A stretch of DNA of 64,000 nucleotides from an uncultured Gemmatimonadales bacterium (GTDB lineage: Bacteria; Gemmatimonadota; Gemmatimonadetes; Gemmatimonadales; GWC2-71-9), in NCBI GenBank assembly GCA_963748815.1, contig CAVVKJ010000010.1, positions 864,001-928,000 on the forward strand, in the 5' to 3' direction. The position numbers and the translations under genes are program-made. Within the stretch, counting starts at the first letter, position 1, and each line of letters starts with the position of its first letter. Under the pieces are notes generated by a model, which was not told where the DNA came from, did no database searches, and saw nothing but the letters and a program-made list of their open reading frames with translations. Positions 14,383 through 25,122 of the stretch are shown here, piece by piece.

Positions 14383-15950
14383 ATGAGACGAATCGTCTTG
14401 ATTGCGTTGGTTGCTGGACTCGCGCTGGCCCCTGCCGCACACGCCCAGAAGGCCGCCAAGAAGCCCGGCGGCAAGCCCAACATCCTGGTCATCTGGGGTG
14501 ACGACATCGGGTACTGGAATATCAGCGCCTACAACCTCGGTCAGATGGGCTACAAGACGCCCAACATCGACCGGATCGCTCGCGAGGGCGCCCTCTTCAC
14601 CGACCTGTACGGACAGCAGAGCTGCACGGCGGGACGCGGCGCCTTCCTGACAGGCCAGAGCCCCTTCCGGACCGGCCTGCTCAAGGTGGGACTTCCGGGC
14701 GCCAAGGAAGGGCTCCAGCCGCAGGATCCGACCATCGCCGAGCTCCTGAAGCCACAGGGGTACGTGACCGGCCAGTTCGGCAAGAACCACCTTGGCGACC
14801 TCGACGCGATGCTCCCCACCATGCACGGCTTCGACGAGTTCTTCGGGTCGCTCTACCACCTGAACGCCGAGGAAGAGCCCGAAGACCCCGACTACCCGAA
14901 GGACCCGGCGTTCCGCGCCAAGTACGCGCCGCGCGGTGTGCTCCACACCTGGGCCGAGCCGAACGGAACCCAGCGGATCGAGAACACCGGCCCGCTCACC
15001 AAGAAGCGGATGGAGACGATCGACGAGGAGTTCGAGGCGGCGGCCAGGCACGTTCATCACCAACGCCTCCAAGGGCGACAAGCCGTTCTTCGTCTGGTTC
15101 AACTCCACCCGCATGCACATCTGGACCCACCTCCAGCCCAGAGCGACGGCGTCACCGGCCTGGGCGTCTATCCCGACGGCATGGTCGAGCACGACGCGCA
15201 TGGTCGGCCGACTGCTGAATCTGCTCGACAGCCTTGGCATCGCCGACAACACGATCGTGATGTACTCCACCGACAACGGCGCCGAGAAGTTCTCCTGGCC
15301 CGACGGCGGGACGTCGCCCTTCCGGAACGAGAAGGCCTCGAACTGGGAAGGCGCGTACCGCGTCCCGGGCATGATCCGGTGGCCCGGCACCATCAAGCCG
15401 GGCACGGTGCTGAACGACATCGTGTCGCACGAGGACTGGGTGCCGACGTCTGGTGTCGGCGGCCGGGCAACCCGAACGTGAAGGAGCAGCTGCTGACCGG
15501 ATACCAGGCCGCGGGCAAGACCTTCAAGGTCCACCTCGACGGGTACAACCTCACGGACTATCTGAGTGGGAAGGGCGCGGACCCGCGGAAGGACTTCTTC
15601 TACTTCAACGACGACGGGTCGCTCGTCGGGCTGCGGTACAACCAGTACAAGGTCGTCTTCGCCGAGCAGCGGGCGACAGGGCTCGACGTGTGGCAGGACC
15701 CGTTCGTGCCGCTCCGGTTCCCGAAGCTCTTCAACCTGCGGTCAGATCCGTTCGAGATCGGCGACCACGAGAGCATCAGCTACGACAAGTGGCGGGTGGA
15801 GCACGTCTTCGTGCTGGTGCCGGCCCAGGCAGTACGTGGCCAAGTTCCTTGGCACCTTCAAGGACTTCCCGCCGCGCCAGAAGGCCGGCAGCTTCTCGGT
15901 CGATGAGGTGCTGCAGACGCTGCCAGAATGCGAATCAGCAGAGCAACTGA
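14383..15950 (+). CDS. Arylsulfatase (Cys-type), split by several frameshifts in this sequence
   Basis: PNILVIWGDDIG, SCTAGR, GKNHLG, STDNGAE, WEGAYRVP, HLDGYN, LFNLRSDPFE spread over the three + frames. Confidence 0.85.
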
Positions 15951-17232: not shown

Positions 17233-17614
17233 CGTCCTCGACGGGGTACCACCGCTCCAGCGGAATCTGGACCGGCGGCTCCTCCTCGGTGCGCTTCGGC
17301 ACCAGGGCCACCAGATCCTCGACGGCGTCCACCGGCCCGCTCCCCACCTCCGCGAATTCGGAGGCGAACTCCCCCCGCTTCTTCCCCTTGAGCGTGTGGG
17401 CGTAGCGCGCGGTGTAGATGACGAGCCGGTCGTCCACGACCCGGGAGAGGATGGCGGTGCCGTACTCCTTGCCGTCGCGACGGAAGGGACGGAACACCCA
17501 GAGGCCGTGGAGCTCCGCGACGGTCAGCTCGGAAGCCACCGCCTGGGCCAGCAGCGCCCACCCGTCGCCGACGCCCGGCTCGGGCGGCGTCGTTACCTGG
17601 TAGCCTGTTCCCAT
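17210..17614 (-). CDS. Hypothetical protein
   Basis: Natural-looking distal part of ORF 17210..18193 (LWVFRPFRRDGKEYGTAILSR); fills the gap in the operon. Confidence 0.65.
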   Translation of the reverse strand: MGTGYQVTTPPEPGVGDGWALLAQAVASELTVAELHGLWVFRPFRRDGKEYGTAILSRVVDDRLVIYTARYAHTLKGKKRGEFASEFAEVGSGPVDAVEDLVALVPKRTEEEPPVQIPLERWYPVEDDGAPDLG

Positions 17615-18693
17615 TTTTCCACGTAGAGTCGAAGGACGTGCATGAAGTCCTGAGCGTTGGTGACGACGCCGTAGGCCTGGTGGGTGCCGCGGTCCTTCAG
17701 CTTGTTGACCACGAACTCCGTCTGGTCCACGCAGATGGTCATCAGTTCGGCCGGGACGCCGTCGTAGTGCGTGTGAAAGGCGGGGAGCATGTTGCCCACC
17801 GCGATCGCGTGCAGGGCCGTGGCCACGAAGATGGCGCCGGTGGCCCGCACCGCGTGCTCCCGCATGGCGTCCTGCGCGGCGAGGGAATCCTGGATGACCC
17901 CGGGGAGCGGCCCGTCGTCGCGGATGGAGCCGGCCAGCACGTACGGCACCTTGCTCGTCACCAGCGCGTGCATGATGCCGCTCGTGATGAGCCCCGACGC
18001 GACGGCCTTCTCGATGGAGCCGGCGGCGCGCACCCGGTTGATGGCGCGCATGTGCAGCCCGTGCCCCCCCTCGGTGGGCTGGCCGGTGTTGGACATGCCG
18101 AGGGTGGTGCCGAAGATGGCCGCCTCGATGTCGTGCACCGCCACGGCGTTGCCGGCCAGGACGGCGTGCACGTAGCCGTTGCGGATGAACCACTCGAAAT
18201 CGGCGCGCGCCCGGGAGTGGACCAGCGCCGGGCCCGCCACCCAGAGGACATACCCGCCGCGCTTCTTCTCCTCGCCGATGCGGGCGGCCAGCTCCTCGTA
18301 GTTCACGGGGCGCTCGCGGCTCACCTCGGTGGACATGAAGCGGAACTCGTTGCCGCTGTGCGCGCCCGGTCAGGAAACCGGCTGGTGTGCACGTACACCC
18401 CCTGGCTGCCGTCCTCCGCCTCCCCCATCACGATCTCCGCCCCGGCCTTCAGCCGGCGCGGCTCCGACACCGCCAGCCCGTCGCCCTGGCGGACGATGAC
18501 GCAGTCCATGCGTGGGCGGGCGGGCATGACCCACCTGCCGCCCCCCAGATGGACGTAGGTGGGGAGGTTGGAGGTCGAAAAGAAGTCCTCGGGCAGGACC
18601 CCGTCGGCCGGAAGGGGAGCAAAGCGCGCCGGTGGGCGCCCCGACGAACGGGGCCTTCGTGAAGTCCGGCGGGGTATATCGAGGAGTGGCCAT
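17593..18693 (-). CDS. TIGR00300-like / ArgZ-AgrE C-terminal-like putative ornithine cyclodeaminase (about 2 frameshifts)
   Basis: DGVLPEDFFSTSNLPT, RMDCVIV, FRFMSTEVSRER, GNAVAVHDIE, VLAGSIRDDGPLP, LHAIAVGNMLP, KLKDRG. Confidence 0.75.
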
Positions 18694-18795
18694 AGGTTGG
18701 GGAATCTTAGGGGTGGCCGGGGGGGGATTCAAGGCAGGCCTCGACACGCGCTATATTTCGAGCACTTGTCCCCCTGACTATACGGAGTTCGAATC

Positions 18796-20415
18796 ATGAG
18801 AGCAGTCTTGACAGCCTCGCTCACCGCGGCCGCCATCGCGGCGAGTCCATTGATGGCCCAGGCGCCCGCGCTGCCGCCGGCTCCAGTGCAGGCCCTCGGT
18901 GCCCCGGCCAAGATGGACAGCCGGTTTGGAGCCCTCGAGTTCAAGGACGGCGCCCCCACGGTCGCGACGGCCGATGCGGTCTACTCCGCCCTCGCCTTCA
19001 CCAACGGCCTGGACGTCTACAACAACAGCTTCCGGGGCGCCTCTGCCTACGCACTCCGAACCGGGTTCTACGGTCTCGGCGCGCGCGGGAACGACGTCGT
19101 CATCTTCTCGGAGCTGATGAATTCGAAGTCGGTCTTCCTGACCGGCAATGCCGACACCATCTACTACCTCTCGATTCTCGACCTCACCAAGGGCCCGATC
19201 GTCATCGAGCAGCCGCCCAAGTCGGTCGGCACCATCAACGACATGTGGTTCTCCTGGATCATCGACATCGGCACGCCCGGTCCCGACCGGGGTGAAGGCG
19301 GGCGGTACCTGATCGTGCCCCCGGATTACGATGGCCCGCTGCCCGAAGGCGGGTATTACATCGCACGGTCGAGCACCGTCCATGCGCTGTATGCCGCCAG
19401 GGCCTACCTGGTCGACAACGACCCGAAGCCCGCTGTCGCCATGATCAGGAAGTCCATGAAGATCTACCCCTACACCCCGGGCGGCGAGGGGACGAGCATC
19501 GCCTCGGCGCTCGAGGGGACGGTCCGGATCGCGCAGAATCCGCCGGTTCCTGAGACCAGGTTCATCGAGGGGTCGAACCAGGTGTTCAATACCATCCCGC
19601 CCAGCGACTACTCGTTCTTCGAGATGATCAACGCCAACGTGCAGGAAGAGCCGGCCACCAGCTACGACGTGGAACTGGCCGGCCAGATGGCGGCCATCGG
19701 CATCGTGAAGGGCAAGCCGTTCAATCCGGACGCTCGGATGAAGAAGATCCTGACCGAAGCAGCCGCCGTCGGGAACGCGACCGGCCGGGTGCTGAACTGG
19801 CGTCCGTTCGAATCGCTGGGCTGGTCCTACTACCCGGGCTCGGCGTGGGGCAGCATGCTCTGGGAGGGTGGCGCCTTCTTCGAGACTCCGCCGCCGATGT
19901 TCACCAAGGACGGCATGTTCAAGCCGCTCCCGCCGACCGGCGCGCGGACCCTCGCCTCGCGGACGGCATTCTACTACGGCTACACCCTCGATTCGCCCGG
20001 CATGATCATGCGGATTCCCGGGGTCGGCTCGCAGTACCTGATGGGCTTCCTCGACGCCAGCAAGAACCCCTTCGACGGGGCCAAGACCTACAAGGTGACG
20101 CTGCCGCCGAACATTCCCGCCCGGGCGTTCTGGTCGTTCACCCTGTATGACAACCAGACCCGCTCCATGCTGGCCACGCCCCAGCTCTATCCCCGCGCCG
20201 GCAGCCAGAGCTATCCCTCGCCGGCCGCCAAGGCGAGCGCCGACGGCTCGACGACGATCTACTTCGGCCCCAAGCAGCCGGCCGGCGTGGATCGCGGCAA
20301 CTGGATCCAGACCGATCCGGCCAAGGGGTGGTTCACCATCCTCCGGCTCTACAGCCCGCTCGAGTCCTTCTTCGACAAGAGCTGGCGGCCGACCGAGATC
20401 GAGCTGGTGAAGTAG
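18796..20415 (+). CDS. Secreted DUF1254/DUF1214 domain protein
   Basis: LTGNADTIY, GPDRGEGGRYL, FWSFTLYD, DGSTTIYFGP, NWIQT, LRLYSP; signal peptide. Confidence 0.88.
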   Translation: MRAVLTASLTAAAIAASPLMAQAPALPPAPVQALGAPAKMDSRFGALEFKDGAPTVATADAVYSALAFTNGLDVYNNSFRGASAYALRTGFYGLGARGNDVVIFSELMNSKSVFLTGNADTIYYLSILDLTKGPIVIEQPPKSVGTINDMWFSWIIDIGTPGPDRGEGGRYLIVPPDYDGPLPEGGYYIARSSTVHALYAARAYLVDNDPKPAVAMIRKSMKIYPYTPGGEGTSIASALEGTVRIAQNPPVPETRFIEGSNQVFNTIPPSDYSFFEMINANVQEEPATSYDVELAGQMAAIGIVKGKPFNPDARMKKILTEAAAVGNATGRVLNWRPFESLGWSYYPGSAWGSMLWEGGAFFETPPPMFTKDGMFKPLPPTGARTLASRTAFYYGYTLDSPGMIMRIPGVGSQYLMGFLDASKNPFDGAKTYKVTLPPNIPARAFWSFTLYDNQTRSMLATPQLYPRAGSQSYPSPAAKASADGSTTIYFGPKQPAGVDRGNWIQTDPAKGWFTILRLYSPLESFFDKSWRPTEIELVK

Positions 20416-20421
20416 CGCAGT

Positions 20422-20462
20422 TACAGGAGACTCACCGGGTCACGGTCGATCGTGACCCGGGG
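20422..20462 (-). repeat. Orphan copy of the priA 3' end (direct repeat, att-like)
   Basis: 40/41 identical to 22703-22743. Confidence 0.92.
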
Positions 20463-20488
20463 GCTCCTGCCCTGCGGCCTCTCCCGGT

Positions 20489-22638
20489 TCAGGGAGCGAC
20501 CGGCGCGAGCGGCGGCAGGCCGTTCAGCTCGCGCGCCGCACCGACCACGTCCCCGATCCCGGCAAAATCCACCGCGATGATGTTTGGCGTCATCCGCCGC
20601 TCCCGCTCGCACTGTCGCGCCCGTTTCACGATCACCTCCCGCTGGTTCACGATCTGCGCATTGCTCGGCTTGGGCGTGGGGGTGGTCTCGATCCAGTGAT
20701 TGATGAGGAAAAGCCCGCCGCGCGGCGTGCCGCGGTTGGCCTTGCAGGAGAAGTCCTCCGGCGTGTGGAAGGTGTAGGGCGTCTCCGCCATCAGCCCCTC
20801 CCACGCCAGGTGGTACCACGGCACGTCGCCGGTGTCGTATTCCCCGAGCACCACCAGCCGACCGCCGCTCGCCACCATCTCGCCCAGGGTCGGCCAGGTC
20901 GGCCCCAGGGGCCCTCGATAGACGAACTCGATCAGGCCGCTCTCCTCGAACGCCGCCACGATGTCCGCCGGAGGCACGTAGTCCTCGAAGTCGATCAGGA
21001 TCACCTCGTTGGGGTGGGTCCGGAGGAATTCGGCGAACGTGCGCAGCACCGGTCCGATCGGAATCGCCCCGAGCTCGCAGTACCCGTGACAGAGGTAGAT
21101 CCCGCTGGCCCCCACCTCGCCGGTGAACTGCTCCCGAATCCGCATGCCCGCGGCCCACGCCTCATTGCCGATGACATTGGCGGTCTTGGCCTTGGCGTAC
21201 GGAACGACATCGAAGTCGGTCCGGACCTTGTCGCCCATCACGTTGCCGCGATAGGGGTCGAGGAGGAACGCGCGCACGCCTCGCTCGAGCAGCAGGGGGA
21301 TGTCCAGGTCCTGGTTGGGGAAGAGCCACACCGGGTTCATCGCCGAGCCCATCGCATTGTGGGCGCCCGGGAACACGACCCGGTTGAAGGGTCGCGCGCA
21401 CAGCGCCACCGCCCCGTTGCACGCGCCGCGGGCCGCGACGACCGGTTCGGGTGGCTCGACCGCCGGCCGCAGGCGCAGCAGGACCGCCGCGCCGATGACA
21501 CCGATCACCAGGAACGTCACGATCCGGACGCCGACCAGGGCCACCGGCGCGACACGGATCTCGTCGCCGCGGCCGCGGAACTCGGCGGGAAGGCTTCGGT
21601 GGGCAAACCGCCGCCAGCCCACGAGGCTGAGCACCAGGAGGAGCGCCCCCCGCTGACGGCCGCGACGGAGAGCGCCAGCGCCGGAAAGCACACCGCGAGC
21701 AGCCCGGCGGCGCCGATCATGAACAGGCGACCGGTCTCCGCCAGCGCCCGCTCGCGTCGGCGAGAAAGGAACTCCCACACCCCCTGGCGGATGGTGCTGG
21801 CATCGAGCTCCTCGCCCGGCACCGCGACCAGTGCGAGCGCCGCTCCGAGGACAGCCACGACGATGCCAATCACGCGCAGCGGACCGAAGAAGGCCATCCA
21901 CAATCCCGTGGCGGCGCCCGCGGCGGCGGCATCGGGAATCCCCGCCGCGAACAGCAAGCGACCCGCGGGAACCACCAGCGCAAGCGCGACCCCGATGGTC
22001 GCGACACCCACGCTCACGGACAGGGCGGTGAGGCGCCGGACCGGGGATACGAGAATTGCCGCCACGAGGAGAAGGAACGCGGCCAGGAATCCCAATCGTC
22101 CGAACACCCGAGCCTGCTCCACGGCGCCAAGCACTCCCACGGCGGCCGTGAGCGCGGGGGCGACCCCCTCGAGATTGAGGAGCGGTTGCAGCGTCGCCGG
22201 AACCCGCTCCGCCGCCGAGGGGCCGGCGACCTTCAGCGCCTCGTGGATCAGCTCGCCCGCGTCGGGAATGGCGAGGAGGATGTTCTCGGCCGTGGACGAC
22301 AGCAGCGCCTGGTGGATCTTGCGCACCGCCGGGCGCAGCAGGGCGCGGAACGGGTCCGAGGCCACGACGCCGCGCGCCACCACCACGAGAATCGGCCGGA
22401 ACGCCGTCAGGTCGGGCTGCTGCCCAATCACCGCGTCGGTCAGCCGCAGGGCGACGAACTCGCTGACCTGAGGGTTCTCGACGCTGGAGCTCACCCGTTC
22501 CGCGAACGCGTCCTCGCTGAGCAGGACCCGGCCCACGTACATCATGATGAGACTGAGCGCCAGCACCAGCAGGCCAACCCCGGCAAGCAGGCTGGCGAGC
22601 CCAGGCGACCACCTGCCACCGCGTCCGGCGTTCGTCAT
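20489..22638 (-). CDS. Multi-pass membrane protein with C-terminal PI-PLC-like phosphodiesterase domain (frameshift near 21650)
   Basis: TM-rich N-terminus; PGAHNAM, LERGVRAFLLD, YLCHGYCELG, HPNEVILIDFED, FLINHW, PNIIAVDF. Confidence 0.75.
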
Positions 22639-22701
22639 AGTTCCTCTGATTTCAAGTGAGGTGACATCTGTCCCGGCGACGGCCTCAAACTCTGCCGATC
22701 G

Positions 22702-25122
22702 CTACAGGAGACTCACCGGGTCGCGGTCGATCGTGACCCGGGGTTCTCCCCCGCCTGCGAGGCGCGTCGCCCCGTAGCGCACCACCCGCCCGAGCACCGC
22801 TCCATCCCCCTTCAGCGCGACATGCCACCGCCACCGCGTCTTGATGCGCGCGAGCGGACAGGGCGCCGGTCCCAGCACGGTCAGGTCCAGCCCGTGCCGA
22901 TCGGCGAGCGCCGCGGCCCATTCCGCCGTTTCCGCCGCCACCCGCCCCACCGCCGTCTCATCCTTCCCGGAGATGACCAGGTTGACGAGCCCGGTGGTCG
23001 GGGGATACGGGGGCGAGCTGCGCAGGGCGAGCTCCTCCGCGAGAAATCCCTCCGCATCGTGCTCGGCGGCCCGCACCAGCGCGTGGTGCGTCGGCTGCCG
23101 GGTCTGGACGAACACCCGCCCCCCCTGGGGACCCCGCCCCGCCCGCCCCGCCACCTGGGCAATCAGCTGGAAGGTCCGCTCCGCCGAGCGGAAGTCGGGG
23201 AGGTGCAGCGCCGTGTCGGCGTCCACCACGCCGACCAGCGTCACGTTCGGGAAGTCGAGCCCCTTGGCGATCATCTGCGTGCCGAGCAACAGGTCGACCT
23301 CGCGCCGCTCGACCGTGCCGAGGATGCGGTGGTGCGCCCACTTCGTGCTGGTCGTGTCGAGATCCATGCGGGCCAGGCGCGCCGTGGGGAACCGCTCCGA
23401 GAGCCACCGCTCCAGCTGCTGCGTCCCGATCCCGCGCATCTGGGCGACGGCATGCCCGCAGGAGACGCAATTTTCCGTGAGGGCGGCCTCGAAGGCGCAG
23501 TAGTGGCAGCGGAGCGCCGGCGGCGACTGGTGCACCGTCAGGCTGATGCTGCACGAGGGACACTCGGGGACGTGCCCGCAATCGGGACACTGCAGGAAGG
23601 CCGCGAATCCGCGCCGGTTGAGGAGGAGCATCCCCTGCTCGCCCCGCGCCAGCACCCGGGAGACCGCCGCGTCCAGCGTCTCCGACCAGGGAATGGCCCC
23701 TGAGCCGGGGATCTTCGGCGTGGAGCGCAGGTCCACCAGCTCCACCGGCGGCAGCTTCCCCGCCCCGACCCGTTCCGGCAGCCGCACCAGCCGCAACCGC
23801 TTCCCCTCCCCCGCCTCCGCCCAGCTCTCCAGCGACGGCGTGGCGCTCCCCAGCACCAGCCGCGCACCCTCGAGCCGGGCCCGCACCGCCGCCACCTCGC
23901 GCGCGTGGTAGCGCGGCGTTTCGCCGTTCTTGTAGGTGGCCTCGTGCTCCTCGTCCACCACGATGACCCCGGGCGCCGTCACCGGCGCGAAGATGGCCGA
24001 CCGGGCACCGACGGCCACCTTCCGTTCTCCGCGGCGGAGCGCCCGCCAGGCGTCGGCCCGCTCCCCGTCCGAGAGTCCGCTGTGCAGCACCGCGACGTCG
24101 TCGCCGAACATGCCCCGGACGCGACGCACCGTCTGCGGGGTCAGGCCGATTTCCGGCACCAGGATGATCGCGCCGCGTCCACTCGCGAGCCCGCGCCGGA
24201 TGGCCTCGAGGTACACGAACGTCTTGCCGCTCCCGGTAATGCCGAAGAGCAGCGCACCCTCGCCTCCCTGCAGCCCCTCCACCTCCGCCAGCGCCCTCCG
24301 CTGGTCGTCGGAGAGCGCGTCCGGCGGCGGGGTTCCCGACTCGCCGGCGAAGGGATCGCGTACCCGCTCCACGTCTTCGAGCCGCGCTTGTCCCCCGGCT
24401 ACCAGGGCACGGATCAGCGCGCTGCTGAACCCGAGTTGGGTCCGCAGGTGGGCCACCGATGCGGTGCCGCCGAGTTCCTCCACCGCCTCATAGAGTGCGC
24501 GCTGCCGGTGCTTGCCGCCAAAGTGCGCCTGGCGCTCGAGCAGGGTCGGCCGCTGTTCCCCGAGGGTCACGACCCGCTCCGTCACCGCGCCGCCGCCGGT
24601 GTCCGGCGACACGATGGTGAGCGTCACGGCACCCACCCGGGCCAGCCGATCCACGGCATCCCACACCCCGCGCTTCATTCCCCGCGCAATGGCGCCCACC
24701 GAGGCGGACCCACCCTTGCGCTCGAGCCACTGCAGAATCTCGGCGCCTGTGCCGCCGGGGACGCGCCGCGCCGCGGCGATCTCCACCACCACCTCGGAGC
24801 TCCCCCAGAGCCCGGCCGGCAGCGCCGCCTTGAGCGCGAGACCGATCGGCGCGCCGTAGTACCCCGCCATCCACTCCACGGTGCGGAGCAGCGCCGGGGT
24901 CAGCGCGGGTTCGTCGTCCGGCGTCGCCAGGATCGGCCGGGCGGCCATGTCCGGGGCGGGGACCTCGACGGCGGTGACGATGCCGATGAGTTCCCGGCCC
25001 CGCACCGGCACGACCACGCGGGCCCCGGCCGCCACGCGGTCGGCCAGGGTGTCGGGGATCTGGTAGGTGTAGGGAGTGGCGAGGGGAAGCGGAAGCGCGA
25101 CCTGCGCGTACCGATCGGTCAT
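22702..25122 (-). CDS. priA: Primosomal protein N'
   Basis: GITGSGKT, LVPEIGLT, VDEEHE, LGSATPS, four CxxC pairs, GTQMIAKGLDFP, QVAGRAGR. Confidence 0.97.
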   Translation of the reverse strand: MTDRYAQVALPLPLATPYTYQIPDTLADRVAAGARVVVPVRGRELIGIVTAVEVPAPDMAARPILATPDDEPALTPALLRTVEWMAGYYGAPIGLALKAALPAGLWGSSEVVVEIAAARRVPGGTGAEILQWLERKGGSASVGAIARGMKRGVWDAVDRLARVGAVTLTIVSPDTGGGAVTERVVTLGEQRPTLLERQAHFGGKHRQRALYEAVEELGGTASVAHLRTQLGFSSALIRALVAGGQARLEDVERVRDPFAGESGTPPPDALSDDQRRALAEVEGLQGGEGALLFGITGSGKTFVYLEAIRRGLASGRGAIILVPEIGLTPQTVRRVRGMFGDDVAVLHSGLSDGERADAWRALRRGERKVAVGARSAIFAPVTAPGVIVVDEEHEATYKNGETPRYHAREVAAVRARLEGARLVLGSATPSLESWAEAGEGKRLRLVRLPERVGAGKLPPVELVDLRSTPKIPGSGAIPWSETLDAAVSRVLARGEQGMLLLNRRGFAAFLQCPDCGHVPECPSCSISLTVHQSPPALRCHYCAFEAALTENCVSCGHAVAQMRGIGTQQLERWLSERFPTARLARMDLDTTSTKWAHHRILGTVERREVDLLLGTQMIAKGLDFPNVTLVGVVDADTALHLPDFRSAERTFQLIAQVAGRAGRGPQGGRVFVQTRQPTHHALVRAAEHDAEGFLAEELALRSSPPYPPTTGLVNLVISGKDETAVGRVAAETAEWAAALADRHGLDLTVLGPAPCPLARIKTRWRWHVALKGDGAVLGRVVRYGATRLAGGGEPRVTIDRDPVSLL
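22703..22743 (-). repeat. priA 3'-terminal copy of the 41-bp direct repeat
   Basis: Matches 20422-20462. Confidence 0.92.

Follow-up and report, generated by a model that had tools for sequence, protein, structure and literature searches.

How does a genome come to carry the end of a housekeeping gene twice, with a single unrelated gene between the two copies? The question is raised by a stretch of 64,000 nucleotides (the window) from an uncultured Gemmatimonadales bacterium (GenBank assembly GCA_963748815.1, here G000), which corresponds to C10:864001-928000 of that genome. In this window the last codons of priA are present once in place, at the end of the gene, and once as an orphan tail on the far side of an inserted gene, which we call ins. 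An earlier note on this DNA took the repeat for the att site of a minimal or eroded integrative cassette that is moved in trans and uses priA as attB. Our comparison with related genomes points to a different origin. Two versions of a variable site behind priA were probably stacked by one illegitimate join together with homologous recombination, and the repeat is likely a scar of a known kind, not the footprint of a new mobile element.

A repeat search of the window returns one two-copy family, at 20422-20462 and 22703-22743, with 40 of 41 nt identical (98%) and a spacing of 2281. When the stop codon is included, each copy is 42 nt long (20421-20462 and 22702-22743), and on the minus strand both translate to PRVTIDRDPVSLL*, the C-terminal peptide of PriA. 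These observations agree with the earlier note, as does the silent nature of the differences: the 42-nt copies differ at two positions, the stop codon (TAA on the left, TAG on the right) and a codon for Arg (CGT vs CGC). The right copy is the functional end of priA (22702-25122, minus strand), which encodes 806 aa from a start at MTDRYAQ and has the Pfam domains PriA_3primeBD, DEAD, Zn_ribbon_PriA, and PriA_C; over the last 332 residues, PriA is 82-96% identical in amino acid sequence to its counterparts in genus relatives. The left copy (20421-20462, minus strand) consists of 13 codons and the TAA stop, has no priA body attached, and lies 5 nt past the stop of a gene with DUF1254 and DUF1214 domains. 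Together, the direct repeats bound 2.24 kb around ins, an arrangement of the attL/attR type.

The pair stands alone in its genome. The tail occurs exactly these two times in the 3,156,669 bases of G000 (19 contigs, 86% complete), and each of the 13 genus relatives that matched the tail pattern has it once. A crude scan of G000 from 16-mer seeds, which looked for repeats of 28-400 nt at distances of 0.3-12 kb that overlapped a stop codon terminating an open frame of 250 or more codons, gave 29 rows, all of which, except the priA pair, were judged to be tandem paralogues or repeat proteins. The orphan matches the priA tails of the relatives G001, G014, and G002 at 41/42 positions and its own functional tail at 40/42, while the functional tail of the window matches each of the same three at 39/42. 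Because both variant positions between the copies show states found in functional priA alleles of relatives, the two tails plausibly derive from two functional alleles, which at two differences is only suggestive; the proposal of the earlier note that the incoming copy came from a functional allele is plausible on the same ground.

What stands behind priA in related genomes? We took the 8 kb behind priA from 20 relatives, 15 of which belong to the same genus and have a readable locus; with the window and five metagenome contigs, about 21 genus loci could be compared. The interval from the priA stop to a conserved motif of the next gene differs in almost every species of the genus. This motif, TTGAAT-17 nt-TAAGAT (18700-18735, minus strand, in the window), precedes the conserved gene that comes next and bounds the variable site on its far side; it is found within 3 substitutions in the window and in the loci of the 15 relatives. 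In what we call the type A version, the DUF1254 gene abuts priA with the two stops 5-6 nt apart; this is seen in G014, G007, and G002, and likewise in G001, which has in addition a sulfatase fragment on the far side, with no priA tail between that fragment and the DUF1254 gene. The same gene is set off by a 120-nt spacer in G010. In the type B version, ins stands alone 54-61 nt behind the priA stop (61, 54, 57, and 57 nt in G013, G016, G015, and G003). The interval is empty in G004 and G005, holds DUF1254, Dps, and ClC channel genes in G008 and G006, and is occupied by a gene for a 403-aa membrane protein in G012 and by one for a TonB-dependent receptor in G009. Among the genus-level metagenome contigs, L063 carries DUF1254, L064 and L066 carry ins, L067 carries a sulfatase, and L065 carries an ins remnant and a TonB receptor. 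The earlier note had suggested that relatives be searched for empty sites or other cargo, and both exist.

The window is the sole locus that holds both the DUF1254 gene and ins, and its two sides resemble two different versions. From the DUF1254 gene through the orphan tail, the left part is collinear with type A. That gene (18796-20415, plus strand; 539 aa; Pfam PF06863 and PF06742) is convergent with priA and shares 89-95% nucleotide identity with its counterparts in G001, G002, G014, G008, G006, and G007. From the ins stop to priA, the right part is collinear with type B. Here, ins (20489-22638, minus strand) is nearest to the G013 copy, at 81% vs 74-76% for other ins copies, and the 63-nt spacer from the ins start codon to the priA stop (22639-22701) shows partial similarity to G013. 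Either side of the novel junction is thus collinear with a pre-existing version of the locus, with 26 nt (20463-20488) left between the orphan tail and the ins stop. As similarity to priA ends at 20462, the illegitimate junction would lie at 20462/20463 or within 20463-20488. The arrangement matches the earlier description of an insertion that keeps priA whole and displaces its old tail, with variable cargo behind the gene. The inserted gene is unrelated to the neighboring genes, so what lies between the copies is no duplicate of adjoining DNA, as a tandem duplication would have it. At the six other loci with an intact ins (G013, G016, G015, G003, L064, and L066), no second priA tail is present.

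Displaced tails are also found elsewhere in the genus. A more sensitive self-comparison of loci was run on the 15 genus relatives and on 77 metagenome loci that reach at least 300 nt past priA. In G008 (L026:4949-5115), a decayed orphan tail of ~140-165 nt lies between the Dps stop, which its own stop overlaps, and the ClC stop; its first 33 nt are 91% identical to the priA tail of the same genome, and the remainder is ~80% identical with insertions and deletions. G006, which has the same gene order, has no recognizable orphan, as 14 and 21 of 200 shuffles score as well. On contig L065 (6918-7320), priA (88% protein identity) is followed by a 345-nt remnant of ins, in which two pieces of the protein are fused together, then by a 58-nt orphan tail, and then by the convergent TonB receptor gene, whose stop lies 13 nt past the tail. 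This orphan matches at 54/58 positions, has a mutated stop codon, and is joined directly to the interior of ins, with a GG/GGG overlap between the ins and priA sequences at the junction. A second tail is found in none of the 72 metagenome loci outside the genus, leaving L065 alone among the 77.

The three orphans are 41, 58, and ~140-165 nt long, and their cargo-side breakpoints lie 26 nt past the ins stop in the window, inside ins in L065, and beside the ClC stop in G008. Because they differ in both respects, there is no fixed crossover site, and a recombinase that works at a single core would not leave such a set. Such independent events with different breakpoints are what a scar of this kind would leave, and comparison of the loci indicates three independent stackings in the genus.

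The repeat also contains a 26-bp dyad, two 10-bp arms around a 6-bp core, CCGGGTCACG-GTCGAT-CGTGACCCGG, which the earlier note read as a recombinase-type site. The description itself is accurate: the pattern is perfect in the orphan (20435-20460), has 1 mismatch in priA (22716-22741), and has no match in 100 shuffled windows. Each arm is coding sequence of the priA tail, one for R-V-T and the other for R-D-P. Across 14 aligned genus sequences, the tail peptide is invariant (14/14) except for P/T, V/I, and T/S at three positions, while complementarity of the arms is 10/10 in three sequences, 9/10 in two, and 4-8/10 in nine. Pairing is interrupted by synonymous changes, and no compensating change accompanies them. 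Because the peptide is kept while the pairing of the arms is broken by uncompensated synonymous changes, alignment of the tails indicates that the dyad is a by-product of coding and not a conserved site, and its interpretation as a recombination site is not sustained.

On RNA folding, the dyad forms the core of a long hairpin (20424-20469) between two convergent genes, on either strand; for the orphan with its flanks, the plus-strand hairpin has -43.7 kcal/mol (z -4.6), and 0 of 200 shuffles are as stable. The hairpin has no U-run, and a terminator scan omits it. One may speculate that it could serve as a transcript end for both convergent genes.

How would two versions come to be stacked? DNA of one version would enter a cell that carries the other, or both would meet within one population. 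One end would then recombine by homology, either within priA or at the opposite flank of the site, and the other end, where too little usable homology is available, would be joined illegitimately, so that the versions are stacked instead of swapped. Alternatively, a circularized fragment could insert by a single crossover in short priA homology, with the same product. The tails may be short because DNA that shares a long stretch with priA would just take the place of the resident version and because stackings bounded by long repeats would quickly be lost through recombination between the repeats.

The order of the two versions was considered on an rpoB tree of 14 genomes, which excludes G005, G010, and G011 because sequence for them was lacking. 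The DUF1254 gene occurs in a clade of G014, G002, G008, G006, G000, and G001, plus the distant G007, and the ins version occurs in the neighboring lineages G013 and G003/G015/G016. This distribution would fit a history in which ins is old in the lineage and DUF1254 arrived with a short priA tail; the opposite order may also have occurred.

Site-specific integration, in which the 41-bp repeat would be attL/attR, the priA tail attB, and the enzyme a tyrosine recombinase encoded elsewhere (host Xer, an integron integrase, or another), would account for direct repeats around one gene with priA left whole, for a 10-6-10 dyad inside the repeat, and for cargo that varies among relatives. Candidate enzymes exist, as the tyrosine recombinase family PF00589 is matched in 7 places in G000, including C8:50337-50924 beside ~47 attC-like repeats. 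None of the seven is in the window, the nearest on the same contig being C10:642379; the genome has no PF00239 resolvase, and among the 46 open frames of at least 170 aa between 9 and 35 kb there is no recombinase or transposase family, those with Pfam matches being metabolic, transport, or housekeeping genes. The absence of an integrase, noted earlier, is therefore confirmed. Even with up to 6 substitutions allowed, the window contains no copy of the attC-like repeat of the genome (48 places on C8 and 9 on C10), and neither GCCTAAC nor GTTAGGC occurs between 17 and 26 kb. A generic dif core pattern is found in 4 places in the genome, and the best dif-like candidate, C10:380370, is unlike the dyad. 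Plasmid and phage collections contain no match to the region, and literature on priA downstream regions or on priA as attB yielded no report of priA as an integration site. With no integrase, resolvase, attC, or dif-like sequence at the site, the role of priA as attB finds no support; ins without flanking repeats at six other loci, three orphans of different lengths with different cargo-side breakpoints, and a dyad that is not kept as a dyad although its peptide is kept all speak against an att site and a cassette moved in trans. We regard site-specific integration as unlikely.

Could the locus instead be an artefact, in which the contig chains the DUF1254 and ins versions of two strains in the sample? 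The assembly is of the metagenome type, with 19 contigs and 86% completeness, and both versions do exist in the genus. However, a false join through the shared 41 bp would run on into the body of priA and not into 26 nt and the ins stop, and the adjacency of orphan, 26 nt, and ins stop occurs in no sampled version. In addition, the copies differ at two positions, analogous orphans are present in two independent assemblies, G008 and L065, and rpoB is one open frame of 1492 aa in G000, so that chimerism seems to us decidedly improbable. A purely local origin, in which the tail was duplicated in tandem where it stands (slippage at the hairpin is one way) and ins came in afterwards, or in which gene conversion keeps the copies alike, would draw on the capacity of the dyad to form a strong hairpin and on the near identity of the copies. 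Yet it needs two events where one suffices, and it leaves unexplained both why the flanks match different pre-existing versions and why ins lies at the same distance from priA in relatives without the duplication. Moreover, no two adjacent tails without an insert are found among the 15 genus relatives and 77 metagenome loci, and we hold a local origin to be very improbable indeed.

Several observations weigh against stacking by an illegitimate join. Nothing matches the 26 nt at 20463-20488 significantly; the best match, to DNA downstream in the type B locus of G013, is 17/25, and 117 of 500 shuffles do as well. A run of G lies at 20459-20463; with the parental sequences unsampled, microhomology at the junction can be stated only as a shared G run. 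No relative is near enough to be a parent, all being other species that are 5-9% apart in rpoB; no clear switch of nearest relative is seen along priA when identity to 13 relatives is followed in 150-nt steps; and the junction in the window rests on one assembly. All three orphan loci share a layout of priA, a co-oriented gene, the orphan, and a convergent gene that ends next to the tail. For ~21 genus loci, three tails at one gene may be more than chance would produce and might hide a site preference. Finally, the dyad is perfect in all five tails that abut DUF1254 (G001, G002, G014, G007, and the orphan) and in none of the other aligned tails, a pattern that fits linkage or selection rather than pure chance. 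On the rpoB tree, G007 is far from G001, G002, and G014. Possibly the tail moves along with the DUF1254 gene, or else the hairpin helps the convergent gene. A related proposal is that the priA tail is itself prone to recombination: a conserved peptide written in G+C-rich codons would force a hairpin-forming palindrome, and breaks or stalls there would lead to recurrent stacking of cassettes, hence three events in the genus. We think this improbable, and the recurrence at priA, three events in one genus, is the only part of the case that is possibly beyond the ordinary. Stacking of two versions of a variable site is still the reading that we favor.

The inserted gene deserves a closer description. 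Its product has a membrane N-terminal half and a C-terminal domain. The earlier note counted a single gene between the copies, and this holds insofar as there is one gene, which, however, reads as two overlapping frames: compared with G013, G016, G015, and G003, it has a -1 frameshift where six C stand in a row (21646-21651). Either the gene is truly inactivated or the assembly has a homopolymer error here. No match to ins is found in Pfam, NCBIfam, or PDB sequences. The nearest ESM Atlas clusters carry PF26146/PF26178 (score, 0.98), so that a PI-PLC X-like phosphodiesterase is a lead for the C-terminal domain whose name comes from the ESM Atlas match alone. An AlphaFold2 model from a 5-sequence alignment of the domain has a mean predicted local distance difference test (pLDDT) score of 42, too poor for a fold search. 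The only paralogue of ins, 50% identical and with an open frame of 701 aa, lies on another contig (G000:C5:49238-50221). The ins copies of G013 and G003 also contain frameshifts, which are probably assembly errors and not decay, because both assemblies also split rpoB into several frames; gene decay, considered for these two copies, was dropped for this reason. In general, frameshifted genes in the G013 and G003 assemblies should not be taken for pseudogenes.

The flanks of the variable site have features of their own. The TTGAAT/TAAGAT motif can be read by eye as a promoter, with 8/12 consensus positions, and a scan of 18500-23000 lists no promoter. A by-eye idea that the 26 nt next to the ins stop represent the spacer beside the promoter of the next gene in type B or empty versions was rejected, as it failed the shuffle test (117/500). 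The gene behind the motif (17593-18693, minus strand) has the Pfam domain ArgZ-like_C_2nd at 17596-18336; between its apparent start at 18693 and the domain there are an in-frame stop and implausible residues, which suggests frameshifts in the 5' part of the gene. Farther away, halves of a Sulfatase Pfam domain fall in two overlapping plus-strand frames, 14383-15903 and 14936-15478, and a frameshift in this gene is likely.

Elsewhere in the genome, the survey for mobile elements brought up an integron-like array at C8:7415-50924, in which ~47 copies of a ~60-nt attC-like repeat with GCCTAAC...GTTAGGC ends stand 0.5-1 kb apart and which is adjoined by the tyrosine recombinase match at C8:50337-50924. 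A second attC-like cluster, of 9 copies, is located at C10:175272-188004 and has no recombinase match beside it. An exact direct repeat of 53 nt at C10:419748 and C10:421540, 1.8 kb apart, resembles part of a tRNA gene and may represent two tRNA genes or an insertion at a tRNA gene.

How does the locus compare with known systems? Islands that carry an integrase and insert into the 3' ends of genes (tRNA, tmRNA, icd, and others) are flanked by repeats of the target 3' end, and the incoming copy restores the gene. The window is alike in that its direct repeats equal the 3' end of the target gene and the gene is restored by the incoming copy; unlike such islands, it lacks an integrase, a fixed repeat boundary, and element ends, and its cargo occurs in relatives without repeats. 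A closer parallel is homology-facilitated illegitimate recombination (HFIR), which reportedly occurs in naturally transformable Acinetobacter, Streptococcus pneumoniae, and Pseudomonas stutzeri. In HFIR, as in the history proposed for the window, homology to a conserved neighboring gene holds one end of the incoming DNA while the other end is joined illegitimately, no enzyme of an element is needed, and junctions vary between events. The window differs from HFIR in that it is known from sequence only, its parents being unsampled, and in that part of the flanking gene, a short piece, is present twice; in HFIR, resident DNA is typically deleted.

Displacement of 3' ends and orphan arrays are said to be known from Rhs loci as well. 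One-sided homologous plus illegitimate recombination has been proposed for the displaced 3' ends and orphan arrays at type VI secretion system (T6SS) and Rhs loci, according to the available part of the report (Kirchberger et al. 2017, PMC5361080). There, too, a new module behind the conserved part of a gene pushes the old 3' end downstream, and orphans mark successive stackings at a hot spot. At those loci, however, what is exchanged is toxin tips and immunity genes, diversifying selection is strong, and the ends that are displaced vary; in the window, the invariant tail of a housekeeping gene is displaced, and the cargo consists of unrelated single genes.

Single crossovers of a circular molecule at E. 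coli lacZ gave duplications of the homologous segment of 109-950 bp, as given in the accessible portion of that work (PMC3240628). Such Campbell-type insertion leaves the inserted DNA flanked by two direct copies of precisely the homologous segment, a feature shared with the window; the 41-bp duplication in the window is shorter than any in that portion, and a circular intermediate is not known. Gene turnover between core genes has been described at chromosomal hot spots without mobile-element genes (Oliveira et al. 2017, PMC5635113, as far as its available text extends). The site behind priA is similar in that two conserved genes enclose a single stretch whose accessory genes change from one related genome to another, with no integrase present. 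It is dissimilar in that the hot-spot study is statistical work across species, the available text of which contains no scars of priA tails.

Measured against these systems, the locus would be a new instance of an already known type of scar, and the mechanism put forward in the earlier note is largely unsupported. It provides a natural example of accessory genes that pile up between two core genes without mobile-element machinery, with a displaced tail as a record of the join. It also carries a caution for the comparison with integrase-borne islands: a direct repeat at the end of a gene, even one with a dyad, need not be an att site, and here it is the codons of a conserved peptide that write the dyad.

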